A stretch of 32,863 bases of DNA from a virus (taxonomy: Duplodnaviria > Heunggongvirae > Uroviricota > Caudoviricetes), in IMG/VR virus record IMGVR_UViG_2700989508_000029, one strand, 5' to 3'. How positions within the stretch are numbered: the first letter of the stretch is position 1; the number at the start of each line of letters is the position of its first letter. Position numbers and translations under genes: made by a program. The notes beneath the pieces were generated by a model. It was not told the origin of the DNA. It made no database searches and saw only the letters and a program-made list of their open reading frames with translations. Below, piece after piece: positions 536 through 16,121 of the stretch.

Positions 536-556
536 AATGGTGCCGATAATAGGAGT
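536..556. repeat. Distal att site: 21-bp exact copy of the thrW 3' end (ptwF-like pseudo-tRNA fragment)
   Basis: AATGGTGCCGATAATAGGAGT is identical to 31418-31438, which lies inside thrW. The two copies are in the same orientation. Confidence 0.9.
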
Positions 557-611
557 AAAACACTCGATTAATCTCGTGTTAATGCCATCACCTACGACCA
601 TTACTAATTGA

Positions 612-1976
612 TTGAATCTTATAGAAAAATCATCATTTTCTATGCGTCACAATCAATTTTCACATTACAAACGCTCCGACACTTTAGCCGGAGATTTTAT
701 GAGATACAAGCCTAACCAATACTTAATCTGTGATTCTTACGGTAACTACTATTTGAGGATCACGTTGCCTGTGTATATGCAGCCCTTTTTTGAAGGAAAA
801 AGGACGTTTGTCAGGAGTCTACATACAAGTAATCTTCGTGTTGCACGTAGAAAGCGTGATCAGATTGCAGATGAATACCATTGTCTACGGGAGAGTGTCG
901 CCCCTGTAAACAGCACAATAGAGAACACGCTGGAGCTGTTACGCAGTAAGGCTAAATACGCCAAAACAGCTACCAGAATGCAAGATACAGCGTCTTCGTG
1001 TCCGTCATTGCTTAAAATTCTTGAAATCTACCTGACAATTAACAGCACGAAGAAGAAGCCAGCCACTTTAGCTAAGGCAAGAAAAGCGGTAGAGATGTTT
1101 CTCTCCTACCGTAAAAAGCCTGATATTGCATTGCAAGATGTGAGCCGCACCACTGTTACAGGCTGGATTGAACACATGCAAAAAACCCTTTCACAACAAT
1201 CAATTGCAAATTATATCAGCCCAATGGCCCAGCTATGGGAGTTAGCTTCATCACGTTACCACGATGCGCCAGAAAGGGCGCTCTCCCCCTGGCGAGGGCA
1301 TAGGCTTGATGTGGCACAAAGTAGAGAGAGCTATGAGGCATTTTCTAACAAAGAGCTATTGCAGGTGTTGCAAGTATTTTCCGGTAATTCAGCAGAAAAC
1401 AAAGAAATGATGGCTTTGTGTCTTATCGGTGCTTATACAGGTATGCGGATCAATGAGATAGCAAGTCTCACAATAGACGATGTGAAAGAGATCGAAGGTG
1501 TGCTGTGTTTTGAAATCACACAGGGAAAAACGAAAGCTGCGGCGCGTGTTGTTCCTGTACATAGCCTTATCACTCCATTGGTGTTATCTCTTCGTGAAAA
1601 GCCTCACAATGGCTTTTTGTTCTATCACGCCAGCATTACAGAGCGTGCTGACGGTAAACGCTCTACGTGGCATACACAACGATTTACAAGAGCTAAACGA
1701 AAGGCTTTAGGGGAAAAGGGAACAGAAAGGAAGGTGTTTCATTCTCTGAGACACGGAGTAGCACAGCTTCTTGATCGAAATCAAATTCCAGAAGACAGGA
1801 TCGCCCTTCTCCTGGGCCATACACGCGGCAATACAGAGACATTCCGCACATATAGCAAGAATGCAGCTTCTCCAGTAGAGCTTAAAAAATATATTGAGCT
1901 TCTACGCTACCCTGAAATAGAGAAAGGCTTATCAATCAATAAAAAATCAAATTTAAGGCGTAAAACAACGCCATAG
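612..1976 (+). CDS. Tyrosine recombinase/integrase (IntF-like by position)
   Basis: Catalytic signature is present: GMRINEI (Arg), KTKAAARVVPVH (Lys), HSLRH (His-x-x-Arg), LLGH and RTYSK (Tyr). The gene starts just inside the att copy and reads into the element. The track start is TTG; the ATGs at 642 or 699 (MRYKPNQYL...) are more likely true starts. Confidence 0.85.
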   Translation: MNLIEKSSFSMRHNQFSHYKRSDTLAGDFMRYKPNQYLICDSYGNYYLRITLPVYMQPFFEGKRTFVRSLHTSNLRVARRKRDQIADEYHCLRESVAPVNSTIENTLELLRSKAKYAKTATRMQDTASSCPSLLKILEIYLTINSTKKKPATLAKARKAVEMFLSYRKKPDIALQDVSRTTVTGWIEHMQKTLSQQSIANYISPMAQLWELASSRYHDAPERALSPWRGHRLDVAQSRESYEAFSNKELLQVLQVFSGNSAENKEMMALCLIGAYTGMRINEIASLTIDDVKEIEGVLCFEITQGKTKAAARVVPVHSLITPLVLSLREKPHNGFLFYHASITERADGKRSTWHTQRFTRAKRKALGEKGTERKVFHSLRHGVAQLLDRNQIPEDRIALLLGHTRGNTETFRTYSKNAASPVELKKYIELLRYPEIEKGLSINKKSNLRRKTTP

Positions 1977-1983
1977 ACGCAAT

Positions 1984-2015
1984 AAAGAGGCTTCAACATA
2001 ATTGGTAGCCTCTTT
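1984..2015. terminator. Bidirectional rho-independent terminator between convergent int and tail genes
   Basis: AAAGAGGCT-N14-AGCCTCTTT hairpin with T-rich sequence on both strands. Confidence 0.6.
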
Positions 2016-2056
2016 TATAATTACATCGTTACAGAGCGTTTTAGAGGCATTTACGG

Positions 2057-2770
2057 CTATTCCTGTTTAAAGGCAGGAGTAATAGTGTCTTCACCTTCAC
2101 TACTTGATTTTTCAGTGTTAACACGTTTTTTCATATTAGCCCCAATGTTCTTAGATGGCTGTGTTTTGAGAGCTACAGTGTTTACAGTGCCATAAGAAAC
2201 TAATCTGATTTGTTCAAAGCTAAGATCAAATACCAGAGATTCGCTTGCCTCTTCTGTGTATTCGATGCCTGTTAAAACAACGTTCTCAAAAGTTTTATTT
2301 TCTGTAACAAGAAGAAAAGGCTGTCTACTGTCCATAATCTGATTCAGGTAATCAATAGCTAATGATCTTCTGTTCCCGTTCACCCCTGCACTCTTTAACA
2401 AGCCAGGATCGCTTTTAATCGGTGTTTCAGTGATCCTTCCTTTAAGAGAAAACTTATTGTTTTTAATTTGAACGTGATCAGACACAGTAGCACCATTTTC
2501 TACGGGGTAGCTTGTAACATCTGCCGAACGTCTCACGTTCACATCGTCAACACTATCAAAGGCCAGTGCCATATAATTTTCATAAACGTCATTGCCAGAA
2601 GATGCCAAGCCACTGGTAACAATAGCAAATCCATTTTCGCCTTTTGTTGTATTAGCTTTGCTATTTTCGTTTTTTGTAGAGTTTATATCTTGTTCTGCTT
2701 TGTAAACAGCCTGAACGTGTTGTTCTGGAGTATTTGCTGCACGTATGGTTAAAATCCCGGCGGTCGCCAT
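2057..2770 (-). CDS. Phage tail/baseplate protein with Dit-like N-terminal domain (237 aa)
   Basis: The segment VTSYPVENGATVSDHVQ...LKGRITE...AIDYLNQIM...LVTE..FENVVLTGIEY...LVFDLSFEQIRLV matches the pattern I associate with Dit-like/baseplate proteins encoded just after tape-measure genes. It lies directly downstream of the TMP-like ORF. Confidence 0.45.
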   Translation of the reverse strand: MATAGILTIRAANTPEQHVQAVYKAEQDINSTKNENSKANTTKGENGFAIVTSGLASSGNDVYENYMALAFDSVDDVNVRRSADVTSYPVENGATVSDHVQIKNNKFSLKGRITETPIKSDPGLLKSAGVNGNRRSLAIDYLNQIMDSRQPFLLVTENKTFENVVLTGIEYTEEASESLVFDLSFEQIRLVSYGTVNTVALKTQPSKNIGANMKKRVNTEKSSSEGEDTITPAFKQE

Positions 2771-2804
2771 AATAATAATTTTCCTTGTAATGTTATGGCG
2801 GGAA

Positions 2805-4634
2805 TTACCCGCCGTTAGATTGTCCTGATAAGCTGGTTAATGTTAATGATTTCAAGAAGCTATCCCGACTTGCTCTCGCTGTAAAATCCACATAATCGCT
2901 TAATCTTGATGTGTCAGAATTAATAGTAAGAGGAACCTCCGTTACCACTTCAAAGGTTGGATTTATATTAAACACAGGAGATAAATTATAAGCTGGAGTT
3001 GTCATTGCAAGATTATTTAAAGCACCCTGTTTGAGATTGGTTATCGGTGCTTCGCTGACTGACATTTTTACATCTGACACAGAAGAAGCATTATCATCGA
3101 AAAGCAATCCCTTAATCGTGTTAAAGAGAGAATGACTATTATCAGGTGCAGTTGTTGCAGTTCCAGCGCCTTTATATTGGTCAGGAACGAGATTAGAAAG
3201 ATGCTGTTTCATCCCTTCATTGCTTAATGGCGGTGCATCACCTAAATTTTTCTGAATAGCATCTGTCTTATCATCATTACGATTAAACCAGTTTACAATC
3301 TTCATAATAGCCTCAAAGAGACTTCCTACAGCTTCTCCCAGCTTCGTAAAATACGGAGTGAGATTAGAAAGGTTTTTCATAAACTCTTCCGTTACTTTTG
3401 GATCGAGAGATTTCATAAAGCCGTCTACGAATGCTACTTGTCTTGCATCAGAAAGCTGTGAAAGCTGTCTGTTTAGTTCTCTGAATTTAACGATAGATTC
3501 TTGCTGTGTTTCTGTTAGCCATTTTCCAGAGGCTTTTTGCTGATTAATACTTTCTTGTACATCTTTAACGGAACGTTGCCAATATTTTGACGTAAGCATC
3601 AAATCATCGCCCAGGTCTTCTAAACGTTGTCCAATTTGGGAGTCTGAAAACCCTTTTTTCATCATTCCATTAACAGCCTTAGAAATTAATCCGGCTGGAT
3701 TATCAGCAAATTTTTTAAGGTCGCTTTTGTTAATAACACCGATGTTTAGAAGTTCATTAATAGCATTATCACCGCCTTTCCATTCAGATTTTCCTTTCTT
3801 GTCTTTCAAGAATTCAGCTTCACTGTAGGATTTTGCGGCACGTTCCCTAACATCTTTCATCTGATCCAGGTATTTCCTAGCCCCTTGATCACCCATCATA
3901 GAGTCAACGCCGTTTCTATAGGCCCATTCTGTAATGTTGTACATCTGGTTAACGTCTACACCGCCCAGCTTGGCCCGTTGAATTAGCTCCCCTTGCGTCT
4001 CTGCGTTAGCGAAGCTGTTAGCCATAAATTCAGAGGTTTTACTAACAGCCATCACGCCAGCGGCAGCCGTAGCGCCTCCAAATAACAGAGCGCCCATCGT
4101 GGCGGAATTCCCTGATCCTCCCTTAACGGGGGCTAATTGAGTTTTTCTATTGCCATTAATCTTACGTTGTTGTTGTTGTAAGCGTTTCATTTGGCTATTC
4201 ATACGTGCAAGCGAGATAGCGCCTTGTTCGTATTGTTTCGCTATCTCTCTAGCCTGTGCAATAGCTTTGTATTGTTCCGCTACAGAGAGGCGGTGCATTG
4301 CACTTATAGAGCTTGACACATCAAGGAGTTTTAATTCTGCTTTCTCCTTACGTGCTGCTATTTGTTGCTGTTGCCTTGCCTGTGCTCTTGCTGCGGCAGC
4401 TTGTGCTCTTTGATTCTGTTTTTCGGTTTTAGCTTTCTGTTGAGCAATCTTGTCTACTTCGTTTTGTGCTTTCTTATAGCCTTTAGTGACATTATCAAAT
4501 CTTAATTTAGCTGGCTTGATGTTTTCTGCGAATTCCTTTAAGCCTGTAATAGAGTCTTTCGCTTTTTTCAAGCTGTCTTTATCTACACTAAATGTTACTG
4601 TGTTCTTAATTTTAGAAGTGTTAATTTCTAACAT
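2805..4634 (-). CDS. Tape-measure-like protein (609 aa)
   Basis: It has an N-terminal Q/A/K-rich coiled coil, a Gly/Ala hydrophobic stretch (ALLFGGATAAAGVMAV) and a long alpha-helical repeat-like body. An SD (aaggggatttt) precedes the ATG. It sits upstream of the Dit-like gene. Confidence 0.55.
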   Translation of the reverse strand: MLEINTSKIKNTVTFSVDKDSLKKAKDSITGLKEFAENIKPAKLRFDNVTKGYKKAQNEVDKIAQQKAKTEKQNQRAQAAAARAQARQQQQIAARKEKAELKLLDVSSSISAMHRLSVAEQYKAIAQAREIAKQYEQGAISLARMNSQMKRLQQQQRKINGNRKTQLAPVKGGSGNSATMGALLFGGATAAAGVMAVSKTSEFMANSFANAETQGELIQRAKLGGVDVNQMYNITEWAYRNGVDSMMGDQGARKYLDQMKDVRERAAKSYSEAEFLKDKKGKSEWKGGDNAINELLNIGVINKSDLKKFADNPAGLISKAVNGMMKKGFSDSQIGQRLEDLGDDLMLTSKYWQRSVKDVQESINQQKASGKWLTETQQESIVKFRELNRQLSQLSDARQVAFVDGFMKSLDPKVTEEFMKNLSNLTPYFTKLGEAVGSLFEAIMKIVNWFNRNDDKTDAIQKNLGDAPPLSNEGMKQHLSNLVPDQYKGAGTATTAPDNSHSLFNTIKGLLFDDNASSVSDVKMSVSEAPITNLKQGALNNLAMTTPAYNLSPVFNINPTFEVVTEVPLTINSDTSRLSDYVDFTARASRDSFLKSLTLTSLSGQSNGG

Positions 4635-4648
4635 TTAAAATCCCCTTA

Positions 4649-4852
4649 TTAATCATTTTTATCACCTTCTTTACTTAAGAAATGGTGTAGAGCCTGATCA
4701 ATACTCTCGTTTAATCTGAACATACGGGCTTTTACTCCTTCATATGGAACATCTAGGAGAGAACAGAGATATTTCAGATTTAACAAGCCTCTAGAATCAT
4801 TAGCATCTAAATGTACGTGTACACCATTTTTTGATTTCAAAATCACTTCCAT
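4649..4852 (-). CDS. Hypothetical small protein (67 aa) between capsid and tape-measure genes
   Basis: ORF with an SD (gagaggtgatt) upstream, in an operon with the TMP-like gene. No recognisable motif. Confidence 0.45.
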   Translation of the reverse strand: MEVILKSKNGVHVHLDANDSRGLLNLKYLCSLLDVPYEGVKARMFRLNESIDQALHHFLSKEGDKND

Positions 4853-4874
4853 ATTTTAATCACCTCTCAAAATT

Positions 4875-4918
4875 TAAAAAAATAAAAAAAAAGGCGAAGC
4901 GTGAATACACGCCACGCC
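4875..4918 (-). terminator. Strong rho-independent terminator/attenuator immediately after the major capsid gene
   Basis: On the minus strand, a GGCGTGGCGTG-TATT-CACGCTTCGCC hairpin is followed by a T9AT7 run. Confidence 0.65.
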
Positions 4919-4936
4919 TCTATTACACGTTAAATA

Positions 4937-5965
4937 TTATTTAACAGTGATTTGAACGGAGAAGCCTACACCGTGGTTTACAACCATCTGGCTATTCTCT
5001 GTAACAACGTTAACAGCATCACCACGAGAAGATTCATAGCTATAGCTATACACCTCAGCAGGAGCGGCATTGATCAGTTCAAAAGTGCTGGAAGCAGCCC
5101 CGTAGATGTTCTGATATACATTAGAGCCTTTAGCAAACTTCGGAATCGCAACCGCATCAGAAGTCATATGTGCAAGGTGTAGCGGATCTACCAGTTTAAC
5201 AACATCAATGTTAGTTCCTGGGATAGTGAACGCTGTCACCCCTGGCAGCAGGTCACGACGCTGATACACAACGTTCCCCTCTTCCAGTGGGCTTACATAC
5301 TGGAATGCGTTTGCCATACCAGCAGAGAATCGAATTGCGGAGAAGGCTTCAGGTTTACAGAAAACAACAATACGCTCTACAGCAGACGCCTGGCTTTGTG
5401 CTTTCTCGATAATGTCAGTAGCAATCTGATCAAATTCTTTAAAAATCTTCGTGGTGTCAGTGCTGGAAGCGTTCACAGTGGCTTTCATAGCTGATACGTT
5501 AAACAGCTTGCCCCATTCGATAAGAACATCATCAGTTTTCGGTGTATAAGTTTTGCCCGAGAACAAAGAAGCAGCCAATACGCTCTCTTTTGTACGCTGA
5601 TACGCTACGTGGTGTTTAGCGATATATTCCGCATAAATATCAGTGAGTGTTTCCTGGAAATCAGTGCCAGGTTTACGTTTGCCTTGAACATCAGAAGGAC
5701 GGATCACATCTTCACGCAGGAAGTAAGGGATCTCGATCAGCCATTCTTTACCTTGTTCTCGCTTAGTAACATTGTGTTCAGAACTAAAACGGCTTGTCTC
5801 TTTGTTAAAGAGAGATTCGTTGCTTTCGACAAGCTGGGAAACAGCTACTTTATGAGATGTAACCCCTACAGAATCCGTAAAATCAAGAGTAGAGAGCAGG
5901 AAGTTACGCGTGCTGTGTGTCTGGAACAGAGGGATCAAATCAACGTAATCATTGCCTAGAATCAT
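4937..5965 (-). CDS. Major capsid protein, lambda gpE-like (Phage_cap_E-type), 342 aa
   Basis: Its length is close to lambda gpE (341 aa). The family-like segment is IPYFLREDVIRPSDVQGKRKPGT...YQRTKESVLAASLFSGK...LIEWGKLF. It is directly preceded by a decoration-like gene, as in the lambda D-E order. Confidence 0.65.
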   Translation of the reverse strand: MILGNDYVDLIPLFQTHSTRNFLLSTLDFTDSVGVTSHKVAVSQLVESNESLFNKETSRFSSEHNVTKREQGKEWLIEIPYFLREDVIRPSDVQGKRKPGTDFQETLTDIYAEYIAKHHVAYQRTKESVLAASLFSGKTYTPKTDDVLIEWGKLFNVSAMKATVNASSTDTTKIFKEFDQIATDIIEKAQSQASAVERIVVFCKPEAFSAIRFSAGMANAFQYVSPLEEGNVVYQRRDLLPGVTAFTIPGTNIDVVKLVDPLHLAHMTSDAVAIPKFAKGSNVYQNIYGAASSTFELINAAPAEVYSYSYESSRGDAVNVVTENSQMVVNHGVGFSVQITVK

Positions 5966-5983
5966 TTATTATTATTCCTTTTA

Positions 5984-6346
5984 TTAAGAAGTGAAAACAG
6001 AATGGAACCCTTCAAGCTGGAAGCCTTTTTTAATTAATGCTGTTTTTGCTGCTTCACTTACAGCATTCAGCGCATCAGCTTTGATGCATACAAGCCCAGC
6101 ATTGCTACGTAAAACATCTACAGGTTTGTTTTCTCCAGCCGTTACAAATTCACTCATAACAACATAGATATCATCTCCTGATACATATTTAGCGCCAGTG
6201 CTGGTGATCAAGTCGCCGCATTCAACATCAGCAGGAAGAGAAGCAAAAACCTTGCTTTCTACAGAGGCAAACGGATCAGTACAATAACTTACAATATCTG
6301 TGAAAGTCTTTCGAACTGGAAACAGAGTGTCTAAATCAATAATCAT
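5984..6346 (-). CDS. Head decoration protein-like (lambda gpD-position), 120 aa
   Basis: The size and the position immediately upstream of the E-like capsid gene fit. Its ATG overlaps the stop of the upstream ORF (ATGA). Confidence 0.45.
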   Translation of the reverse strand: MIIDLDTLFPVRKTFTDIVSYCTDPFASVESKVFASLPADVECGDLITSTGAKYVSGDDIYVVMSEFVTAGENKPVDVLRSNAGLVCIKADALNAVSEAAKTALIKKGFQLEGFHSVFTS

Positions 6347-6555
6347 TTAGTAATCTCCTTAGCTTTTAATTTGATTAATTCATTAAGGGAAGGTGTAGAC
6401 GGAGAAGAAGGAGAAAAATATTTTTCAACACATCTTTCTACTTCTTCTACAGAACACCCAGCGTATTTAGCTACCATTTCGGTAATTTGTGGATTTATTT
6501 TCAGCATTTCATCTTTATACTTGATGATTTGCTCTTTATCATTTAAGAACAACAT
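6343..6555 (-). CDS. Hypothetical protein (70 aa), first gene of the structural operon
   Basis: Translationally coupled (ATGA) to the decoration-like gene. No motif recognised. Confidence 0.45.
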   Translation of the reverse strand: MLFLNDKEQIIKYKDEMLKINPQITEMVAKYAGCSVEEVERCVEKYFSPSSPSTPSLNELIKLKAKEITK

Positions 6556-6617
6556 TTATATAAACCTTGTTACCTTGTTTAAAGTAAGAAATACAACTTT
6601 TAAGTTGCATAACGGGC

Positions 6618-6649
6618 AAAATAAAAGGCAGCATTTAGAGCCGCCTTTT
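6618..6649 (-). terminator. Rho-independent terminator separating the early and structural operons
   Basis: On the minus strand, the GGCGGC-UCUAAAU-GCUGCC hairpin has a G-U pair that is valid only on that strand, followed by UUUUAUUUU. Confidence 0.55.
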
Positions 6650-6678
6650 ATTAACTTGTACCTATGTAATTACCCTAT

Positions 6679-6708
6679 GTTATGCATACTCCAAGATGTA
6701 TGCATAAC
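6679..6708. promoter_or_regulatory. Operator-like perfect inverted repeat GTTATGCATA-N10-TATGCATAAC upstream of the structural operon
   Basis: 10-bp perfect arms. A third half-site, TTGCATAAC, lies at 6605-6613, nearer the operon start. Confidence 0.45.
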
Positions 6709-6904
6709 AAAGGAAAAAAGAGGTAATAATGACACAGTATTTACTTAAGGAGGAGAAGCGGGGAGCGGAGATTTTACTCCCCTTTAACGACAAGAAGAAT
6801 TTTTAATATCGAACCAATAAAGGAAAAATAATCACCCCATATAATTATATTAACATATAATAGATGGAATGTCAAGATATTTTACAACTTTTTTGTTGCT
6901 TTTT

Positions 6905-7267
6905 TTATTCTTCTGTGATAGTGCCTAAGCGTTGAGCGAGTTCGACAAGTCCATCTCCCACATAGCGAACATCAGATTCGATATCTTCTATCCAGTTTGA
7001 TAGCTCCCATATCTGATCGGCTGTCAGGTATGCGTTTTCGCGCTTACAGAGCATCTCTACACGCTTAGAGAGGTGCTCAAAGGCATTCACAGCTAAATCC
7101 CAGTGTTTAAACGCCTCATTTAGTGACGCTGGTGTGTTTTCTTTGTATGCTTCAAGTTCAGCGCGGTTTAAAGGCAGAAGGTAATCATCCTCATAATAAT
7201 TAATTAGTGAGTAAATTGTGTCATACGTGTTTTTGTTCATATTAAAAGTCTCCATAGTGATCAGCAT
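6905..7267 (-). CDS. Hypothetical protein (up to 120 aa; likely start at 7240 or 7255)
   Basis: The ORF is adjacent to the upstream gene's stop at 7242-7244. A GGAGA SD precedes the ATG at 7240. Confidence 0.45.
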   Translation of the reverse strand: MLITMETFNMNKNTYDTIYSLINYYEDDYLLPLNRAELEAYKENTPASLNEAFKHWDLAVNAFEHLSKRVEMLCKRENAYLTADQIWELSNWIEDIESDVRYVGDGLVELAQRLGTITEE

Positions 7268-7652
7268 TATCTAGAATCTGGAAGTCTGGAACTAAGTTAT
7301 TTAGGCCATTTGTGGCGAGATAACCAACGTAGTGGTTATAGTCTTCAAATCCTAAAATCTGGTATTTGCGTAAATCAGAGCTATCAACGATATACTCTTT
7401 TCTTTTTCTAGGTTTCCAGAATACGCCAGGTGTTGAAGATAAGATTTCTTGTAAGGCGTTAAATTCATCTCCGCAAGGCACAGAGGGAGAATGTTCTATG
7501 ATCTCTGTTTTCCATTCGCCAGGGGCGCTATTTTGCTTGGTGAGCGTAACTAGCTCTTTAAAGTCTTTGCGTCTTAGAATAGATTTAGGTTTACTTAGAA
7601 GAGAAGCTGAATCCCCGATTTTCTTAACAACGTTGTTTTTTCTTTTTGCCAT
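7242..7652 (-). CDS. Hypothetical protein with basic N-terminus (136 aa)
   Basis: ATG at 7652 with an AAGGAAA SD. The N-terminus is MAKRKNNVVKK. No family recognised. Confidence 0.45.
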   Translation of the reverse strand: MAKRKNNVVKKIGDSASLLSKPKSILRRKDFKELVTLTKQNSAPGEWKTEIIEHSPSVPCGDEFNALQEILSSTPGVFWKPRKRKEYIVDSSDLRKYQILGFEDYNHYVGYLATNGLNNLVPDFQILDNADHYGDF

Positions 7653-7784
7653 TATTTACTTTTCCTTTTCTTTTAAAGGAAAACACCCCGAAGTATGTTT
7701 CTAACGTGAGAAAGAACAATAACCAATACATAGCTACTATCATAATAATGTTTTCCTTTTATATTTTAATTACATAGAGAGATT

Positions 7785-8063
7785 TTAGAGAGTGGAATAG
7801 ATGAATTCTATTTCTTTATCTAGTCTTTTGAGATTGAATGTAGAGAAAGATAATTCTTTAATTTCTATAACACCGAAGTTTGATAGCTGTTTCAGCCAGA
7901 ATTTTAAACCATCTTCAGAGCACCCTGCTCGATGTAACACATCGCTATATTTTAGCGGTGTTGGCTTTCCTTTATAGAGGTAAGCAAGTGTTTCGTAGAT
8001 GCGTTTTCCTGTGTCGTTACACTGAATTCTGTCTACTTGATTTTTTACTAAATATTGAATCAT
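7785..8063 (-). CDS. Small putative winged-helix DNA-binding protein (92 aa)
   Basis: A strong SD (AAGGAGGG) precedes the ATG at 8063. The sequence looks wHTH-like. Confidence 0.45.
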   Translation of the reverse strand: MIQYLVKNQVDRIQCNDTGKRIYETLAYLYKGKPTPLKYSDVLHRAGCSEDGLKFWLKQLSNFGVIEIKELSFSTFNLKRLDKEIEFIYSTL

Positions 8064-8074
8064 AACCCTCCTTA

Positions 8075-8767
8075 TTAAAATGGAATATCAAAGTCTTCGT
8101 ATACTTTGGGATGTTTCTTAGCAAAATATGCCTCAATACCATTTGGTAGCTTTAACCTGTGCTTATAGGCTAACGATGTTGCAAATTCTATAAATGATGC
8201 TCCTCCTGTTCTAGTATTCTTCTGCTTGATAATAAGAGAGGCAAAATTCTTTAACACATCCTCCTCATTATCATTAGCTACCTTTTCACTTGATGAAACA
8301 GGTGTTTCTTCCGTCTCCCACGGTAAAGGCGTATCCCAATCATCATCAAGAACATCAAAAGAAGGCTGTTTATGGCCTTTAGGTTGTTCCTGTGCTTCTT
8401 CTGCCTCAGAAAGATCAGAGAGTGATGATTCTCCTGGGGGAGTAATATGTGCATCTGTGAGAGGGAGAGCATTGTAAATCAAAGATGAAATATACGGATC
8501 AGGATGTGGGGATGTTTCTAATAATCCCATCTCTTTAAGATCGTTTATCTTACGTTTAATTGTTGACGCTGAAGACTTAAAAATCTTAGCTAATGTTTCG
8601 TGACTTTCATAACAATTAAGGTTGTTTTCCTGATAACTAAGGAATCGAAAATAAAGCACAATATGTAATAGATCTAAATCTTTTCCTTGAGGGAATTTAT
8701 CAGAATAAATCTTTGATACATTATCAAACGTGTCATAGTGTTTTGTAAAAGTTAGTTGGTTAATCAT
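8075..8767 (-). CDS. HTH replication-initiator-like protein ending in an SSB C-terminal-tip-like motif (230 aa from MINQL)
   Basis: AAGGAG SD 7 nt before the ATG at 8767. The N-terminal wHTH-like segment is ESHETLAKIFKSSASTIKRKINDLKEMGLLE. An acidic linker follows, and the C-terminus YEDFDIPF resembles the E. coli SSB tip DFDDDIPF. Confidence 0.5.
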   Translation of the reverse strand: MINQLTFTKHYDTFDNVSKIYSDKFPQGKDLDLLHIVLYFRFLSYQENNLNCYESHETLAKIFKSSASTIKRKINDLKEMGLLETSPHPDPYISSLIYNALPLTDAHITPPGESSLSDLSEAEEAQEQPKGHKQPSFDVLDDDWDTPLPWETEETPVSSSEKVANDNEEDVLKNFASLIIKQKNTRTGGASFIEFATSLAYKHRLKLPNGIEAYFAKKHPKVYEDFDIPF

Positions 8768-8820
8768 TAAAAATCTCCTTGATGTAATCACGCTCTATGG
8801 CGCTACTATGGTGATAAAAA

Positions 8821-8991
8821 TCACTTGCTTTTATTTGAGAGTGTTTCAGCCTCTCTTTTCAACATATCAAGAATGTAATCTGTGACAGTGATCCGTCTAC
8901 TTCTGGCTTCTTTAAATAACACCTGAAATACTTCATCAGGAATATGAAAGCAAGTGCGTGGTTGTCTTTTCTTTTCTGTAGTTTCGCTCAT
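8821..8991 (-). CDS. Ribbon-helix-helix (CopG/Arc-like) protein (56 aa from MSETT)
   Basis: AAGGAG SD before the ATG at 8991. RTCFHIPDEVFQVLFKEARSRRITVTDYILDML fits a beta-alpha-alpha RHH pattern. Confidence 0.5.
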   Translation of the reverse strand: MSETTEKKRQPRTCFHIPDEVFQVLFKEARSRRITVTDYILDMLKREAETLSNKSK

Positions 8992-9010
8992 AGTTTTCTC
9001 CTTCTCTTCT

Positions 9011-9199
9011 TTACTCTGTTTCAGATTCTTTTTCATTTTTTCTTAGTTCATCAATAATCTTGAGTGCTTCATTGAAGCAAGCTGCTCGCTCTGGATAACC
9101 TCGACTCCTTGCCATATTACGATTCATTACTACTTGGTGGCGTGTAAGCTCACCTTTTTTAAATGCCTGGACGACGTGCTCAGGTGTAAACCATTTCAT
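9011..9199 (-). CDS. Hypothetical small protein (62 aa), first gene of the early operon
   Basis: AAGGAG SD before the ATG at 9199. Confidence 0.45.
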   Translation of the reverse strand: MKWFTPEHVVQAFKKGELTRHQVVMNRNMARSRGYPERAACFNEALKIIDELRKNEKESETE

Positions 9200-9310
9200 A
9201 AAAAACTCCTTATTCAGTTAAAAGAAAAAACACCTTGCAAGCCTGACGGCTTCAAAGTGCATTGATTTTGATTATTTAGAGAAGAATGTTTTTCTGTCCC
9301 TCTAATACCT

Positions 9311-9339
9311 ATTATTACATATAAAGAAACATTTGTCAA
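9311..9339 (-). promoter_or_regulatory. Candidate sigma70 early promoter of the AT-rich element
   Basis: On the minus strand, TTGACA-N16/17-TAATAAT lies about 110 nt upstream of the first early ORF. Confidence 0.4.
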
Positions 9340-9855
9340 TACCTTTTCATAAAAAATCTGATCTTTTTCATGCACTTACATTTTTTCTTAGCAATTCGTG
9401 CTCTCCTATGTAGTGCTATTCTTCCTTATTGTCTAAAACGCTCTAAAACGCGTTCTAACGAGATTTTGATAAAAGCAATACATTCCCTTATCTAATGGCT
9501 GTTTAGCTCGCCAGAGGCTTATTTAAGTGGCTTATTTTGTATTTGTTAGATGATGATAGATATAAAACAGAGAGTCACTTTATAAAACGCTCTGTAAAGC
9601 CCTGTAGTGAGTTTATTATATGTAGGCAATGCGTTTCCATTCCCTACCCTGCTTAATGTTGTTAGAGAAGCATTTAGACCCCTTATTTTTAATTACCTAA
9701 AGTATCCTCTATACATCTCTGTTATGAAACACCTCTGAATCCTTCATAAAACACATTATGACGCAAAGAACACTTTTCTAAGGTGATTCCCTTCCTGAAT
9801 GCTGTTTCTTGCGTCAGAGAGCTACACAGAGCTTATAAAGATATTATTAATAATA

Positions 9856-9917
9856 AAGTAGATAAAGTAAGTAAGATAAGTAAGTAAGATAACTAAGATA
9901 GATAAGATTAATAAGAT
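9856..9917. repeat. Degenerate TAAGATA/TAAGTAAG tandem microrepeat
   Basis: gataaagtaagtaagataagtaagtaagataactaagatagataagattaataagat. Confidence 0.6.
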
Positions 9918-9961
9918 CAGAATTCTCTTTCGGTGTCGCCTCTGGCTTTTCCACCGAAAAC

Positions 9962-10228
9962 AATTACACGACTACAGAATGTAGGAAGTGAAATTGTATT
10001 GAGGCTTAGTGAAATTACACGAGGAAAGCAGAGTGTAATTGAGCTTTAGCCGCTCTCTTCGAGTAATTACACAACTACAGAGAATAACGAGAGTTATTAA
10101 ATGTAGGAAGTGGAATTAAGAGGTAGAGAGTTACACATAAGCAATCAGTATGATTGGTTAGGTGATTACTCTTCTGCGCACAGCGCAATAGTATTTCTTC
10201 GTGGGCGTTACCGCCACGATAGTTACAC
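9962..10228. repeat. Cluster of (A)ATTACAC sites (about 6 copies, one inverted)
   Basis: AATTACAC occurs at 9962, 10013 and 10065, and GTGTAATT (inverted) at 10033. TTACAC/GTTACAC occur at 10131 and 10222. The larger unit AATTACACnACTACAGA...TGTAGGAAGTGnAATT is repeated at 9962-9994 and 10065-10118. Confidence 0.6.
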
Positions 10229-10350
10229 GAAGAAAGTAACGCTTTGCTTTCGGTGTGAGCGGAACGGGCCAGCCACGAAGCCCGAAAGGTAGCGGAGTAA
10301 GGCTGCTTGCCAGAGAGTGAAGCTAACGCCGGAAGGCAAAAGATCATATA

Positions 10351-10501
10351 TATATAGTATAAAGAATATTATTATGATCTAATTAATAATCTAATATAGT
10401 TTTATTAATAGTCTTATTGTAGTTCACAGTGACCTACCCCCTAGCTCACTATGACCTACCCCCTAGGTCACAGTGACCTATATAGTATAAAGAATATTAT
10501 T
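10351..10501. repeat. 23-bp perfect direct repeats flanking TGACCTACCCCCTAG repeats and a 15-bp palindrome
   Basis: TATATAGTATAAAGAATATTATT occurs at 10351-10373 and 10479-10501. TGACCTACCCCCTAG occurs at 10430-10444 and 10452-10466. The palindrome AGGTCAC-A-GTGACCT lies at 10465-10479. Confidence 0.7.
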
Positions 10502-10526
10502 TATATTATTTAATTATAGTATTGGT

Positions 10527-10626
10527 GGAACTCATTTCCTAGGTAGGTAGGAACTCATTTCCTAAGTAGGTAGGAAACCACTTCCTAGGTTACTTCCTAA
10601 ATAGATCGGAAATCATTTCCTAGGTG
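10527..10626. repeat. Iteron array: 4-5 copies of GGAAnnCAyTTCCTArGT (internal GGAA-N5-TTCC dyad), ~23-bp period
   Basis: Copies start at 10527, 10550, 10573 and 10608, with a partial copy at about 10593. Confidence 0.7.
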
Positions 10627-10641
10627 TTATTTATTCTTATC

Positions 10642-10700
10642 GGGTATCAGTTTTGATAGGGGTATCAGACTTGATAGGGGTAACAGAATTCTGTGGGGGT
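10642..10700. repeat. Iteron array: 3 copies of GGGGTAwCAGnnTTGATA, 18-bp period
   Basis: Copies at 10642-10658, 10659-10676 and 10677-10694, then a GGGGGTAG partial copy. Confidence 0.65.
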
Positions 10701-10866
10701 AGTTCACTATGACCTACCCCTAGCTCACTGTGAGCTACCGTTACATTCAATCATCTTCCGATGTGTAATATCGTTACATTCAATAATTAGTCTATGTAAC
10801 ATATCGTTACTACCAACTTTCTTACAAAGAGCATTTCAGATAGCTGAATGTAACCTCTCGTTACAT
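10701..10866. repeat. Third TGACCTACCCCTAG copy, AGCTCAC-T-GTGAGCT palindrome, and CGTTACAT/ATGTAAC sites
   Basis: TGACCTACCCCTAG is at 10710-10723 and the palindrome at 10722-10736. CGTTACATTCAAT occurs at 10739 and 10772. ATGTAAC occurs at 10794 and 10848, and CGTTAC(AT) at 10805 and 10859. Confidence 0.6.
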
Positions 10867-11669
10867 CCATTTGTCACATAGCACTCTGTGTAATGCCTTT
10901 CTATGTGTGTGCCATAATCCCCCCTATATTCCCTGTGTAAATCATAGAATATCCCTAACTTATTCCTGTGTAATTCCATACTAAAAATTCAATGAAAAAA
11001 GTAGCTTAAAAGTTCAATTCTTACTTTCTTCACTTTTACATCACTTTCGCAAATCCTTGTGTAATGCGGCTTACAGAGCACCATCAGAAATTGTTGGCTA
11101 AAAATTGTTCTGCTTGTTTCTTAATGAGTTTTCTTGTTTGTGCAAATTTTAAAATTTATTTTGTTTTTACAGCCTTATTTCGTGTAATGCGTGGCATAGC
11201 AAGCCCTTTTCTTGTGTTGTCAAGACATTTGGCAACGTTCAAACATCTGTTTAGAAATGCCAAATTGTTGATCTAACAAATAAACCTGTATAAACAGAAC
11301 ACCATTTAATCTATTCCCCTGTGTAATCCACTACATCACACGATAAAAACAAAAAACTTTTAATTATATTTCATAGCACACAAAAGTCAACAGAAGCCCT
11401 CTCGTGCTCCTACGTAAAAAATCCATCACTTTTCCCCTGATACATCAACTCAAGGCGTTCTATGTGTTCCTTAGTGCATATTACGATTATTATGTTAAAT
11501 GGATTTTGGCCTATATTTTGACCTGCACCCGCATAAACACTGGTTTCATCGCTTACAGCCCTTGTGAGACGTGGTGCTGTTTCTAGCATCTGATCCGACA
11601 TAAAACCGATCATTCTCGTGTTTAGTGAAAGTTTAGTGAGAGACATTACAGAAAGGCTTTCTGTGTAAT
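10762..11669. repeat. Dispersed (C)TGTGTAAT sites (at least 8 copies), inverse orientation of the 9962-10228 ATTACAC cluster
   Basis: Copies at 10762, 10886, 10933, 10966, 11058, 11182, 11319 and 11661. One reversed copy (ACTACACAGG, next to GTTACAT) lies at about 12331-12347. Confidence 0.6.
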
Positions 11670-12137
11670 GATTTAATAGGTAAAAACGATGTTGATTACG
11701 CAAGAAAATTCCTTGCTGATATTTGGGGATTCTGGATTTTCCAGATCGGGGGGCGCTGAAAATCGCGTTAAGCACTTCTCGCAATCTAGCCATAAGGGAA
11801 GGGATATAGGTATTTAGATGTATTTATAGCTAATTTATAGCTATTTATTTTTTATTTACCTTTATTAAAAATAACCTTATAAATCAATAAGATACATAAT
11901 TATCTGTTTATATTCTAATCAATTAAATCAAGTTTAATACCCTTAAATAACCTGAAAATAGCCTTAAATACCCCAATAATTAATTTTAAGGTTTTCCGTG
12001 TTCTCTTCTGCATTATGAAAATGCAAAATAAGGCACAAAACAAGCTCACATACGCATTAAACACACATCACCTATACATCCCTATGCCAAGCAATGAAAA
12101 CAGCGTTAGAATGCGTCCTGTTGCGTTCTGGAGATTT

Positions 12138-12296
12138 TCAGAAATCCTCTCTAAGCCATTTCAACTCACTAAGGAGTTTTCTTTCTTCGTTCTCTCGTTG
12201 CTTTCGCTCTAGCCAGGCTTTTCCCTCTGGCGTAGACAGGAACTTACGAGCGTGAATCTTGCGGTTATTACGTTTGATAGCTGCAATGTTTTTCAT
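12138..12296 (-). CDS. Unlisted small basic ORF (52 aa, MKNIAAIKRNNRKIHARKFLSTPEGKAWLERKQRENEERKLLSELKWLREDF)
   Basis: I translated this by hand. It has an ATG with an AGAGG SD about 8 nt upstream, and GTTACAT / CTGTGTAGT-type sites lie just upstream. It is below the 60-aa threshold of the ORF track. Confidence 0.35.
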   Translation of the reverse strand: MKNIAAIKRNNRKIHARKFLSTPEGKAWLERKQRENEERKLLSELKWLREDF

Positions 12297-12479
12297 CGTG
12301 TGCCTCTGTATTCATATGAAAATTAACAAGTTACATACTACACAGGGAGACTACGCATAAAACACAATACAAGTAAAGATACATTTTCAAGACAATAGGA
12401 GCCATAAAGCGCCTTTGATGGTTATACCAAAAAATAAGCGCCGTAGGCGTATCCACTAAAAAGGGCTTTTTCACAAAAG

Positions 12480-12842
12480 CTATGAAGTCTTAGCAGTTCT
12501 TCTCTTATCAGGCACCCGTTGTACTCCGGTGGACGAAACCGTGCTAGAGCTTGATTCTTTCCCGATCAAGTTAGGTTTTGAAGAGGTGGGCTTTAATCCA
12601 CTATGCACTTAAAACTCTTCCCATCATTTAGCCTGTTTATCCTCTGCAACGTCTCACGACGTGTAGCATCATTGGACACCGCGCCAGGTGTGGAACATCT
12701 TGCTAAGAGTTTTGGTAGAAGGTTTAGAGACGGTGGCACGTCTTCCAGCTTCAAAGGAACTTGTTACGAGGTTGAGCCTGGGAACTACTCGCCCATACGT
12801 GTTACACTACCAAAGCCCATAACAACGTATAGGCGTTTGTAA
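12480..12842 (+). ncRNA. Candidate structured non-coding RNA (hairpin cluster) next to the inter-element att
   Basis: A locally GC-enriched block in AT-rich DNA holds seven consecutive hairpins: 12548-12572, 12581-12620, 12649-12662, 12676-12691, 12727-12744, 12745-12781 and 12790-12836. Three G-T appositions (12549/12571, 12727/12744, 12750/12776) are wobble-compatible only on the + strand. Confidence 0.35.
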
Positions 12843-12898
12843 GTGATAACAGAAGATACAATTTCTTAGAGAAGTTAAGCTAAGTTATTGATTTTCTT

Positions 12899-12916
12899 AA
12901 TGGTGCGATAATAGGA
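12899..12916. repeat. Degenerate internal att copy (junction between the two elements)
   Basis: AATGGTG-CGATAATAGGA differs from AATGGTGCCGATAATAGGA by a 1-nt deletion. Its flanks (TTGATTTT.. / ..AAAACA) also resemble those of the 536-556 copy. Confidence 0.6.
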
Positions 12917-12978
12917 ACAAAACAAACAATAAAAATACATTGATATATAAAGACATTTTCCCATTACATCTTTGTAGA

Positions 12979-12998
12979 TACCCCCAAAAGTACCCCCA
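12979..12998. promoter_or_regulatory. Putative integrase arm-type sites (TACCCCCAAAAGTACCCCCA), distal arm of the P4-like element
   Basis: 19/20 identical to 31287-31306 beside the integrase gene, in the same orientation, with the same 12-bp spacing of the TACCCCCA octamers. Confidence 0.5.
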
Positions 12999-13257
12999 AA
13001 CAATTTTCTCTCACCACCATTTGCACATAAAGCAGCCATGTACAACTGGTAGTTGAACAGGCGGGTAGACCGTTCGTTCAGTAAATACCTGATATTTCCG
13101 CCAACGAGAAATTGCGTTGGCTGGCAGAGTGCAAATTTGCACGATAACCTAACCCATTGATTCTTTCGAAAACCCGCAATGCAGGAAGCCGGATAACACC
13201 ATTTTATAGCTCCGATCCCTTCAAAGTGAGGGGTAATTTGCCAAAACAGAGAGAGCA

Positions 13258-13545: not shown

Positions 13546-13578
13546 TTCTGCCTCTCAGATTATATAGATAAGCAAAAA

Positions 13579-13705: not shown

Positions 13706-13755
13706 ACAGCGATAGATTTGCGATTGGTCCGTTATTTTCTGGCTGATATTTGAGC

Positions 13756-13790: not shown

Positions 13791-13804
13791 TATTACTCAC
13801 TGAT

Positions 13805-14245: not shown

Positions 14246-14274
14246 TTGATCAGTGTATAAATGATATTTATCGC

Positions 14275-16104: not shown

Positions 16105-16121
16105 CGCTAAAGGGGGTTGGT

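Follow-up and report, generated by a model that had tools for sequence, protein, structure and literature searches.

The initiator-candidate gene lies in an integrative element

The window, meaning the whole 32,863-nucleotide stretch of viral DNA that was analysed (IMG/VR record IMGVR_UViG_2700989508_000029), contains a 12.4-kb integrative element in which a protein of 230 amino acids is encoded (Table 1). The open reading frame for this protein, which the earlier note had described as ending in YEDFDIPF, proves to be genuine: it begins with an ATG at position 8767, is preceded by a Shine-Dalgarno sequence (AAGGAG) 8 nt upstream of this codon, and has a C-terminus that reads ...HPKVYEDFDIPF. 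The gene takes third place in a long operon, where it is accompanied by a 56-aa ORF, whose product we take to be ribbon-helix-helix-like when judged by sequence alone, and a second small HTH-like ORF. A PDB sequence search with the 230-aa protein returned no match, even at an E-value of 10. RefSeq labels the protein as a hypothetical protein or a transcriptional regulator in many strains, E. coli O26:H11 11368 among them; the family name at NCBI is 'transcriptional regulator', and the genes of the element are annotated merely as hypothetical proteins.

Table 1. Positions of the element, its genes, the parts of the 230-aa protein and the repeats of the putative origin, numbered from the first letter of the window
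Feature	Position	Strand	Basis or remark
Integrative element carrying the initiator-candidate gene, 12.4 kb	536..12916		at thrW
Element ends, 21-nt repeat of the tRNA-Thr 3' end	536-556; degenerate copy ~12900-12916		
Integrase	699-1976	+	
Tube-initiator/Dit-like	2057-2770	-	
Tape-measure-like	2805-4634	-	
Major-capsid-like	4937-5965	-	
230-aa protein CDS	8078..8767	-	stop codon 8075-8077; winged helix, acidic linker, helical C-terminal domain, DFDIPF tip
C-terminal tip D-F-D-I-P-F-COOH, SSB-Ct-like peptide	8078..8095	-	terminal F near-universal, penultimate P nearly so
Small four-helix C-terminal domain, residues 167-224 (~58 residues)	8096..8269	-	AF2, pLDDT ~90
Acidic Ser/Pro-rich disordered linker, residues 113-166	8270..8431	-	composition, pLDDT
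Winged-helix DNA-binding domain, residues ~10-112, 'MINQ' specificity class	8432..8740	-	Pfam, PHROG, AF2
LPLTDAHITPP junction motif, residues 101-111	8435..8467	-	three of five invariant family-alignment columns (D105, H107, P111)
Two small upstream ORFs of the same operon	8821..9199	-	62-aa (9011-9199) and 56-aa (8821-8991); order kept in related elements
Rest of the putative origin (AT-rich blocks, exact 23-nt repeat, D2, D5)	10340..10690		repeat analysis
Exact 23-nt repeat in AT-rich blocks	10351-10373 and 10479-10501		
Three tandem 22-bp iterons, family D1, CCCCTAGCTCACTATGACCTACC	10416..10482		inferred binding sites of the 230-aa protein
D2 repeats, TTCCTAAGTAGGTAGGAA	10536-10625		
D5 repeats, GGGTATCAGnnTTGATAG	10642-10677		
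Two more D1 iterons, far side of the central repeat block	10696..10739		repeat analysis, class co-variation

Scans of the element's ORFs with Pfam, PHROG and NCBIfam yielded matches only for the integrase, the Dit-like, tape-measure-like and capsid-E-like proteins, and the HTH protein. No helicase, primase or polymerase was recognisable to these profile collections, no second replication-protein match was found among the other ORFs, and the NCBIfam scan of the small ORFs gave nothing. An element without a recognisable helicase or primase must recruit replication proteins. Its capsid, tape-measure and tail-tube-initiator genes are diverged copies from phi92-like phages (Stephanstirmvirinae); the Dit-like protein is 61% identical to the tail tube initiator of phage PaulScherrer, and the tape-measure and capsid proteins are related as well.

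The element has the generic traits of a phage satellite, namely an integrase, att repeats and structural genes derived from a helper; neither a terminase nor a portal is recognisable in it. Profile scans of its ORFs detected none of the marker genes of known satellites (P4 alpha, sid, psu and delta; PICI alpA and pri-rep), and neither the cfPICI marker (a full capsid module with a small terminase) nor the PLE gene set was matched. Literature searches for satellites of Stephanstirmvirinae returned nothing relevant. All or part of the element is found in 622 of 5,426 complete E. coli genomes, and it appears to be a new type of satellite to which phages have a counter-measure.

The N-terminal domain weakly resembles those of replication initiators

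That the protein begins with a winged helix is borne out by three lines of evidence. The N-domain matches Pfam HTH_36 at 24.3 bits, just under the cut-off of 25; all PHROG matches of the protein are to replication-initiator families, with E-values from 2.7e-9 (phrog_270) to 1e-4; and the AF2 model has pLDDT values above 90 across residues ~20-110, which form the winged helix. The best fold matches in the PDB are RepA_N plasmid initiators (4PQL, 4PT7 and 5KBJ) and the DnaD N-domain, and these are weak (E ~1e-2). Neither Phage_rep_O nor RepA_N was matched in a Pfam scan of the protein. The homology by which the protein is tentatively assigned as an initiator is therefore weak. A relationship to SSB itself was considered and rejected, as there is no OB fold: no SSB or OB family was matched in Pfam, and the AF2 model consists of a winged helix and a helical bundle.

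Iterons co-vary with the class of the N-terminal domain

The 22-bp repeat that is paired with the MINQ class of N-domain, termed D1 (TAGCTCACTATGACCTACC), occurs in five or six copies in total, at 22-bp spacing and with flanking AT-rich blocks, ~1.6 kb upstream of the initiator-candidate gene. Among 30 loci, the iteron sequence is specific to each N-domain class. D1 was found in every MINQ-class locus that covers the upstream region (3-9 copies) and does not occur in the MPKKKK, MSKIKL and MAKTL classes, while D2 goes with the MIKNIK initiator class in other loci. The array itself also varies in length, with 66 nt (three units) extra in O26 11368 at the site of the three tandem copies.

The earlier note had proposed that the protein is a site-specific binder, perhaps for one of the iteron families. 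The co-variation of the N-domain class with D1 supports the pairing that this proposal requires, and from it we infer that the D1 iterons are candidate binding sites of the 230-aa protein. No DnaA box with at most one mismatch was found between positions 9200 and 12200, and thus DnaA-dependent firing near the iterons is not supported.

A disordered acidic linker and an exchangeable helical domain

The long acidic, proline-containing linker that had been noted is indeed present: residues 113-166 (54 residues) include 16 D/E, 3 K/R and 5 P, and the segment is predicted to be disordered, with pLDDT below 50 at residues 117-166. Its sequence and length differ among homologues. However, the claim that this linker is just as in SSB does not hold, because in E. 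coli SSB the linker is rich in Gly, Gln and Pro and has hardly any charge, with acidity confined to the last residues. The arrangement in which the tip follows the acidic linker also needs amendment. Both parts exist, but the AF2 model places a folded four-helix domain of ~58 residues (167-224) between them.

This small domain is modelled with pLDDT ~90 both in the full-length protein and alone. A fold search with the domain alone against the PDB gave nothing meaningful (best E 2.8), and a profile search with the domain plus tip for fusions to other N-domains recovered same-family fragments only. In other family members the helical domain is replaced by unrelated modules, and in some natural variants it is deleted in frame. 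In these deletion variants the tip lies ~18 residues past the linker, which is roughly the geometry of a linker leading directly to the tip.

The C-terminal tip is conserved across unrelated modules

E. coli SSB ends in ...MDFDDDIPF, and its C-terminal peptide (SSB-Ct) docks PriA, chi, DnaG, RecQ, ExoI and others. The likeness of the 230-aa protein to this tip, as first noted, holds for the DFD and IPF residues, although the 230-aa protein has two Asp fewer. With SSB-Ct, whose hexapeptide is DDDIPF (PMC5872125), it shares the location at the extreme C-terminus, the terminal Phe, the penultimate Pro, Ile or Leu at position -3, upstream acidic residues and a nearby aromatic F.

A lack of conservation among homologues, which the earlier note had named as grounds for abandoning the idea, was not seen. 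Relatives from eight enterobacterial species with 21-62% identity almost all terminate in [IL]-P-F, and the tip can be written as [D/E]-x-[I/L]-P-F-COOH. An alignment of 16 sequences spanning this identity range to the query has five invariant columns, among them the terminal F (16/16). Species-representative loci from Enterobacter, Serratia, Buttiauxella, Citrobacter, Erwinia and E. coli have the terminal F in eight of eight cases and PF in seven. Among the 27 distinct family ORFs in the loci examined, 26 end in F, 25 in PF and 24 in [ILV]PF. The same DNA has 641 other ORFs with a length of 100 aa or more, of which 30 end in F and one in PF. The sole PF-ending ORF among these 641 is a remote relative with the same architecture. 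A remote Erwinia relative that is without the TDAH motif keeps the layout unchanged and has the tip ...WGIPF.

Variation within the tip follows several patterns. In a few members the Pro is replaced by S, G, K or A (EISF, DIGF, DIKF and YIAF); the Pro-to-Ser change is a natural ssb-113-like variant. Acidic residues lie by the tip in the 230-aa protein (E224, D225 and D227) and in most variants. They are missing from a large Enterobacter/Cronobacter clade with the tip ...YGRFGTPF (RFGTPF/RFGIPF) and from two divergent subfamilies, whose tips QSTIPF and QSAVPF contain Gln. The codons for Pro, Phe and Ile/Leu vary synonymously, which suggests that selection acts on the peptide and not on the DNA.

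The tip is borne by at least three C-terminal segments that are mutually without BLAST similarity, as defined by clustering the modules on the 55 residues that precede the tip. It is also retained in several independent variants (L024, L030 and P0138) in which ~45 aa of the helical domain are deleted in frame. By these comparisons the tip is an independent module, and we rejected the notion that the terminal Phe is a mere part of one domain's core.

The same observations bear on the possibility that the terminal residues serve the C-terminal domain as a hydrophobic cap, or mark the protein for degradation, and are not a docking peptide. In the AF2 model the tip comes straight after helix 220-227 of the folded domain, with coil limited to the last three residues, IPF, and terminal hydrophobic residues can act as protease tags. 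However, the tip persists on unrelated C-terminal modules and once the helical domain is gone, and the last eight residues, predicted as coil, have a mean pLDDT of 75 versus ~90 for most of the remaining domain. We consider this explanation highly improbable.

The tip could instead be read as a hexapeptide that binds the beta sliding clamp (QLxLxL/F), in which case the clamp or the clamp loader would be brought to the origin. Known clamp motifs include QLSLPL of Hda and QLVLGL of Pol IV; such motifs end in L or F and are often internal. D-F-D-I-P-F fits the underlying x-Phi-x-Phi-x-Phi pattern, with I228 and F230 as hydrophobic residues, the QSTIPF and QSAVPF subfamilies have the clamp-typical Gln, and non-acidic tips such as RFGTPF would suit the clamp pocket better than the SSB-Ct pocket. 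In contrast, most tips of the family are acidic and without Gln, and both the near-invariant Pro-Phe pair and the strict C-terminal placement are hallmarks of SSB-Ct recognition. A precedent for such a role is TrfA of plasmid RK2, for which experiments have documented both initiation at iterons and a motif that binds the beta clamp (PMC4980987). Like TrfA, the 230-aa protein would bind iterons through a winged helix, initiate replication there and use a short motif to draw a replisome hub protein to the origin of a replicon that has no replisome of its own. The TrfA motif, however, is internal and of the clamp type, whereas the tip studied here is C-terminal and SSB-like, and TrfA also requires DnaA and DnaC, whereas there is no DnaA box near the D1 iterons. 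On balance, clamp binding seems to us distinctly unlikely.

A phage chimera carries the same DNA-binding domain

The N-domain recurs in lytic phages. Protein gp184 of the Justusliebigvirus phage inny consists of two copies of the winged-helix (HTH_36) domain and a MUG113/T5orf172 (GIY-YIG-type) domain. MUG113 scores 22.3 bits, exactly at the cut-off, T5orf172 is weak, and phrog_681 ('endonuclease') is matched at 3.9e-18. A 97-kb inny-like viral contig (L026) encodes a variant of this chimera in which residues 1-128 are 100% identical to the 230-aa protein. The 56-aa ORF of the operon is also found ahead of the chimera gene in phage inny.

PLE relies on the replication machinery of its helper phage, and we know of no SSB-like tip reported for its RepA initiator. 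The helper phage ICP1 carries Odn, which copies the DNA-binding domain of RepA and cuts the PLE origin (PMC8263062). The present case resembles this one in that a candidate helper phage has fused the DNA-binding domain of a putative satellite initiator to a T5orf172/GIY-YIG-type nuclease domain, in that the N-terminal domain would be iteron-specific, and in that initiator class and iterons are exchanged between satellites as replicon modules. The two differ in their hosts and phages (Vibrio and ICP1 versus Enterobacteriaceae and phi92-like phages) and in the DNA-binding domain, which is RepA_N in PLE RepA and HTH_36-like in the 230-aa protein. The phage chimera lends independent support to the initiator reading.

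This parallel with the origin-directed Odn is one reason to doubt that the protein is a transcription regulator or an interference factor, with a decoy tip that would titrate ExoI, RecQ, RecJ and PriA off SSB and so protect the element or harm the helper. Its NCBI family name is in keeping with regulation, as is the company of the ribbon-helix-helix-like and HTH-like ORFs in the operon, and the repeat-rich region could serve as an operator array. Yet the PHROG matches are all to replication initiators, the tandem 22-bp iterons with their AT-rich flanks resemble an origin, and the element is without any other candidate initiator. We judge a regulator or decoy to be very unlikely.

Candidate partners of the tip

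The element has the look of a lytic-phage satellite, and so the recruited machinery may be that of the phage rather than that of the host. The candidate helpers, phi92-like phages, have genes for a DNA polymerase and a primase/helicase. A tblastn search of the candidate helper PaulScherrer with E. coli SSB found no match, and the only PaulScherrer proteins with PF or acidic-plus-F tails are bas60_0074 (...DIQRLPF) and bas60_0223 (...RDDDSEF), both with uninformative PHROG matches. The search gave no sign in PaulScherrer of a phage SSB from which the tip might have been copied, and the tails of this kind are on proteins without an assigned role.

A helper that brings a polymerase and a primase-helicase, and in which no SSB is recognisable, also raises the possibility that the partner is not a classical client of host SSB. 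The tip might then bind a protein outside the host SSB interactome, such as the helper's primase-helicase or polymerase or a protein of the satellite, and its likeness to SSB-Ct would be convergent or coincidental. The descent of the element's structural genes from phi92-like phages is consistent with this, as is the T7 replisome, in which the gp4 helicase-primase and the gp2.5 SSB have acidic tails that end in Phe and contact the polymerase. T7 thus offers a non-SSB replication protein with an SSB-type tail, although the tails there are longer and purely acidic, with no Pro-Phe pair, and belong to enzymes instead of origin-binding proteins. Two observations point the other way: the tip stays constant though all other modules of the protein are swapped, and the initiator family also occurs in smaller elements without capsid and tail genes, in Serratia and Erwinia loci. 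Together these argue for a universal, conserved partner, for example a host hub protein. We regard a partner outside the host SSB interactome as unlikely.

A model for the 230-aa protein

The explanation that we prefer is that the 230-aa protein is an origin-binding initiator of a satellite with a docking tip of the SSB-Ct type, a reading that we hold tentatively and rate at slightly below an even chance. Its role would be analogous to that of PLE RepA or lambda O. The N-terminal winged helix would bind the 22-bp D1 iterons, the acidic disordered linker would act as a flexible tether, the small helical C-terminal domain would be an exchangeable part that nature can dispense with, and the C-terminal peptide would serve by itself as a docking motif like SSB-Ct. 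Initiators arrayed on the iterons would then present a cluster of tips resembling a patch of SSB-coated single-stranded DNA, and this cluster would bring replisome proteins that bind SSB-Ct to the element's origin. Candidate partners are the host proteins PriA, DnaG primase and the clamp-loader subunit chi, or else the SSB-interacting replisome of the helper phage.

With SSB the protein would share, besides the tip, a long disordered segment and the display of tips in multiple copies on DNA. It differs in being a predicted sequence-specific winged-helix binder of double-stranded DNA and not an OB fold, in having an acidic linker where that of SSB is Gly/Gln-rich, and in the non-acidic tips of some family members. 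Its layout recalls that of lambda O and of RepA_N initiators such as pSK41 RepA, in which a winged helix at the N-terminus binds iterons and is joined by a flexible linker to a small C-terminal domain that contacts host replication proteins. In contrast, the C-terminal domain of the 230-aa protein is without a detectable structural relative, and no loader gene comparable to lambda P adjoins the initiator-candidate gene.

Implications

Bacterial genome maintenance centres on SSB-Ct as a hub peptide. Our literature searches for an SSB-Ct-like motif on a replication initiator found no paper describing one in the library covered, and such a peptide on a sequence-specific binder of double-stranded DNA would be a new way of starting replication. 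An initiator of this kind would mimic, at a selected site, a template covered with SSB, and so bypass DnaA or a dedicated helicase loader. The system is a convenient one, as it comprises E. coli, phages of the BASEL collection, a protein of 230 amino acids and a six-residue motif with natural variants.

A wider proposal, which we put forward as possible but doubtful, is that these elements are undescribed enterobacterial satellites (~12 kb, with their own capsid, tape-measure and tube-initiator variants) of lytic myophages like phi92 and phAPEC8. They would use a modular RepA-like initiator whose SSB-mimic tip nucleates a foreign replisome on double-stranded iterons, and their helpers would answer with the GIY-YIG-type fusion. 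If true, this would be a second, independent arms race of the Odn-versus-RepA kind, in E. coli.

Domain organization of the window protein

The 230-residue window protein ends in ...HPKVYEDFDIPF, which is followed directly by the stop codon, and the C-terminal tip resembling that of bacterial SSB that was described in the earlier note is therefore real. The N-terminal winged helix proposed at the same time is likewise borne out by a high-confidence AlphaFold2 prediction, by a sub-threshold match of residues 38-83 to Pfam HTH_36 (24.3 bits, cut-off 25), and by matches to replication-initiator families in PHROG (phrog_270 at 2.7e-9, plus O-like and DnaD-like families). A PDB sequence search with the protein returned no relative. 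The best PDB fold matches of the full model were the staphylococcal RepA_N initiators 4PQL, 4PT7 and 5KBJ and the DnaD N-domain, with weak E-values. Homology to known initiators is weak, and the protein cannot be assigned to the Rep_O or RepA_N families of Pfam. Its identification as an SSB was also considered and rejected.

The AlphaFold2 model, built on a 16-sequence alignment, corrects the expected geometry in one respect. The tip had been placed straight on the acidic linker, but a folded helical domain is predicted to intervene; with this change, the tip observation holds. The last 68 residues modelled alone agree with the full model (mean pLDDT 85; 75 for the last eight residues), and a fold search of the PDB with the C-terminal domain model found no structural relative. 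The linker (residues 113-166) is indeed acidic and contains proline (16 D/E, 3 K/R, 5 Pro). However, its description as being just as in SSB is inexact, because the E. coli SSB linker is Gly/Gln/Pro-rich and nearly uncharged (composition computed from its sequence). The end of the winged helix carries the motif LPLTDAHITPP, which includes D105, H107 and P111 and supplies three of the five invariant family positions; the motif recurs in the first domain of the phage chimera described below.

Coordinates of features in the window and residues of the window protein
Feature	Position	Strand	Details
12.4-kb element	536-12916		tyrosine integrase, Dit-like protein, 609-aa tape-measure-like protein, capsid-E-like protein, run of small ORFs, winged-helix window protein
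ORF of window protein	8078-8767; stop 8075-8077	minus	AAGGAG ribosome-binding site 8 nt before ATG at 8767
Winged helix	residues about 10-112		pLDDT >90 (AlphaFold2)
LPLTDAHITPP motif	8435-8467; residues 101-111	minus	end of winged helix
Disordered segment	residues 117-166		pLDDT <50 (AlphaFold2)
Four-helix C-terminal domain	residues 167-227		pLDDT about 90 (AlphaFold2)
Terminal IPF	residues 228-230		coil (AlphaFold2)
AT-rich blocks	within 10340-10740		exact 23-nt repeat
D1 repeats	10416-10482 and 10696-10739		five 22-bp units, CCCCTAGCTCACTATGACCTACC
D2 repeats	10536-10625		three units
D5 repeats	10642-10677		two units
Unannotated 127-aa ORF	11410-11793	minus	start at 11793
Second island	12917-31438		tandem to element, reaching tRNA-Thr
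Abi_2 protein, second island	14275-15297
P22 gp7, gp20 (ejection proteins) and DUF2824 homologues, second island	18860-21413
Primase-helicase, second island	22176-24935		Zn-ribbon, Toprim, DUF927
C4 antisense and isrK RNAs, second island	27354-27581
Integrase, second island	30040-31254
tRNA-Thr	31420-31495

Conservation and modularity of the C-terminal tip

The earlier interpretation had been made to depend on conservation of the tip among homologues. Across all loci compared, a terminal F is found in 26 of 27 distinct family ORFs and a terminal PF in 25 of 27, compared with 30/641 and 1/641 for other ORFs of at least 100 amino acids in the same DNA. The tip is thus conserved, and the interpretation as a whole is partly supported. 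The sole family ORF without a terminal F is the phage chimera, and the sole PF-ending ORF outside the family is a remote relative in Erwinia with an equal layout and the terminus ...WGIPF.

Relatives at >94% identity, mostly from E. coli and Shigella, terminate in DFDIPF or DFDLPF. An exhaustive search among 50%-identity cluster representatives yielded 40 relatives, whose full-length members with a matching C-terminal region carry the tips DFEIPF, DFDIPF, FDPIPF, EFELPF, FEDLPF and YDSIPF, as well as SAVPF, TPDPF, FGTPF, DDIGF, EDIKF and YIAF; in the weakest matches, the winged helix alone aligned and the C-termini were unrelated. Only five columns of the family alignment are invariant (M1, D105, H107, P111 and the terminal F230). 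Scanning a single genome from each species gave eight loci (Enterobacter chuandaensis, Serratia, Buttiauxella, Enterobacter sp., E. coli, Citrobacter, Erwinia typographi and Enterobacter nematophilus), all F-terminal and seven PF-terminal, and twenty IMG/VR loci contributed additional tip variants. Synonymous variation is evident in the tip codons (CCA/CCC, TTT/TTC, ATT/ATA/CTA/CTT).

The docking tip of SSB (SSB-Ct) is defined by its extreme C-terminal position, a Phe, a Pro, Ile/Leu at -3 and acidity upstream. These features are matched by the family tip, in which the Phe is invariant and the Pro nearly so and most variants are acidic upstream (for the SSB-Ct hexapeptide DDDIPF, see PMC5872125). 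Weak points of this reading are the non-acidic tips of the RFGTPF clade and the occasional members that replace Pro by S, G, K or A. The hydrophobic pattern also fits a clamp-binding hexapeptide, and the typical Gln is present in QSTIPF/QSAVPF variants; we consider it unlikely that the tip is such a peptide.

The Buttiauxella homologue (L009 9875-10780) ends in ...RFEISF, with a penultimate Pro-to-Ser change identical to that of ssb-113, the classical allele of E. coli SSB, and can serve as a natural test of what the Pro contributes. Erwinia typographi encodes a second, remote protein (L013:19187-19855) comprising a winged helix, a Pro/Glu-rich linker and a helical end with the terminus ...HPHVYDSWGIPF. 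Because this protein, located 9 kb from that genome's family member, has the same layout and lacks the TDAH motif, the design extends beyond the family.

BLAST clustering of the last 55 residues before the tip separates the C-terminal segments into at least three mutually unrelated classes, one being the helical domain of the window protein, and the [I/L]PF terminus is common to all three. Natural variants (L024, 1-555; L030, 10001-10564; protein P0138) have lost ~45 residues, most of the helical domain, in frame and retain ...AYFSKHYPNVYDDFDIPF directly after the acidic linker, keeping the last ~18 residues and the DFDIPF/DFDLPF tip. They represent ready-made 'linker plus tip' forms. N-domain and C-terminal classes are paired in differing combinations, making the protein a mosaic whose sole constant parts are the TDAHxxPP junction and the tip. 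Such modularity favours a self-contained docking peptide over a purely structural role of Phe230, and weakens the case for a structural or degron function of the tip, which we rate as very improbable.

A putative origin with class-specific iterons

Upstream of the operon lie ~3 kb without annotated genes (9200-12200), in which no DnaA box was found allowing up to one mismatch. The putative origin within this region (10340-10740) combines at least three iteron families (D1, D2 and D5) in a mosaic. E. coli O26:H11 11368 differs from the window by 66 nt at the repeats, corresponding to three more D1 units in 11368. Related loci carry iterons of different sequence at 22-23-bp spacing, about 1.3-1.6 kb upstream of the homologue.

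Motif counts in 30 loci reveal that D1 (3-9 copies) is present in every locus of the window's N-domain class (MINQ) that includes upstream DNA, and is absent from three other N-domain classes. GGGTCAGGCACTTTACCGGA is restricted to the MPKKKK class and D2 follows the MIKNIK class. For iteron reading by the winged helix, with D1 as the candidate site of the window protein, this co-variation is the strongest evidence available, and by inference it favours the earlier proposal of a site-specific binder for an iteron family. Because D1, D2 and D5 pair with different initiator classes in other loci, the putative origin may respond to several specificities.

The same stretch of ~3 kb also includes an unannotated 127-aa ORF, whose first ~15 codons (11746-11791) have 93-97% DNA identity to a segment in ~30 or more Stephanstirmvirinae phages (94967-95008 in phage PaulScherrer). 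A CTGTGTAAT-type motif recurs between 10886 and 11678. Possibilities for these sequences include a shared promoter or leader, or a packaging signal.

A candidate satellite of phi92/phAPEC8-like phages

The window is E. coli chromosome at thrW, and the element is bounded by two copies of the tRNA 3' end, one of 21 nt at 536-556 and a degenerate one near 12900-12916. It is annotated as hypothetical proteins only, and no helicase, primase, polymerase, terminase or portal is recognisable among its encoded proteins. Related sequence occurs in 622 of 5,426 complete E. coli genomes. The gene order is kept in Enterobacter hormaechei at another chromosomal site, and in shorter elements of Serratia and Erwinia the homologue is found with just an integrase, a resolvase and a DUF6998 protein.

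Each of the three structural proteins is a divergent copy of one from phi92/phAPEC8-like (Stephanstirmvirinae) phages. The Dit-like protein shares 61% identity with the PaulScherrer 'tail tube initiator' (bas60_0019), the tape-measure protein is 31-53% identical to its phage counterparts, and for the capsid protein full-length identity is 21%. In addition, 40-50-nt stretches of the element are 93-100% identical to these phages. The element looks like an undescribed satellite of this phage group, and literature searches found no description of such a satellite. The tandem second island, which also encodes the proteins Ash and AntA, resembles a further satellite-like element, one that has a replication enzyme of its own.

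Gp184 of the phi92-like phage inny (L006:3914-5017; 367 aa) contains two tandem winged-helix/LPLTDAH domains of the window-protein type. Behind them lies a nuclease-like domain of the GIY-YIG type, which matches MUG113 (at the Pfam cut-off), T5orf172 (weakly) and a PHROG 'endonuclease' (3.9e-18). A homologue of the element's 56-aa ORF, whose sequence we read as ribbon-helix-helix-like, comes before the chimera gene. A 97-kb viral contig (L026), 94-99% identical to inny and PaulScherrer, carries a chimera variant (L026:10001-10511) whose residues 1-128 are 100% identical to the window protein. The phage chimera protein lacks the PF tip. The same architecture is found in Odn of the Vibrio phage ICP1. 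This T5orf172 nuclease carries an N-domain copied from the RepA_N DNA-binding domain of the initiator of the PLE satellite, and it cuts the PLE origin at iterons (PMC8263062). By analogy, the window protein would be the satellite's origin-binding initiator, its sites targeted by the phage, and the chimera suggests an anti-satellite, origin-directed putative nuclease in coliphages.

The tip might instead have a partner from the helper phage or satellite, since the phage encodes a polymerase and a primase-helicase of its own and no E. coli-type SSB was detected; we regard this as unlikely. PaulScherrer bas60_0223 (L017:27515-27925, minus; 136 aa) has an acidic tail with a terminal Phe (...HDPSRDDDSEF) and no function in PHROG. 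Given the lack of a recognisable E. coli-type SSB in PaulScherrer, it might belong to the phage's own SSB-like interaction system.

A proposed model for replisome recruitment

The NCBI annotation and the operon context would suit a regulator or decoy, which we judge improbable. We tentatively favour, as the most likely reading, an initiator bound to D1 iterons from whose array the linker and tip would project. The [D/E]x[I/L]PF-COOH tips would dock in SSB-Ct-binding pockets of replisome proteins, and a replisome would thereby be built on an element without its own. A documented precedent is the iteron initiator RK2 TrfA, which uses a short motif to recruit the beta clamp as a hub (PMC4980987). 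The window protein behaves like an iteron initiator with an SSB-Ct-like motif, and would belong to a known kind, the initiators that recruit replisome hubs via short motifs. Its setting appears to be a satellite of a new type, countered on the phage side by an Odn-like protein.
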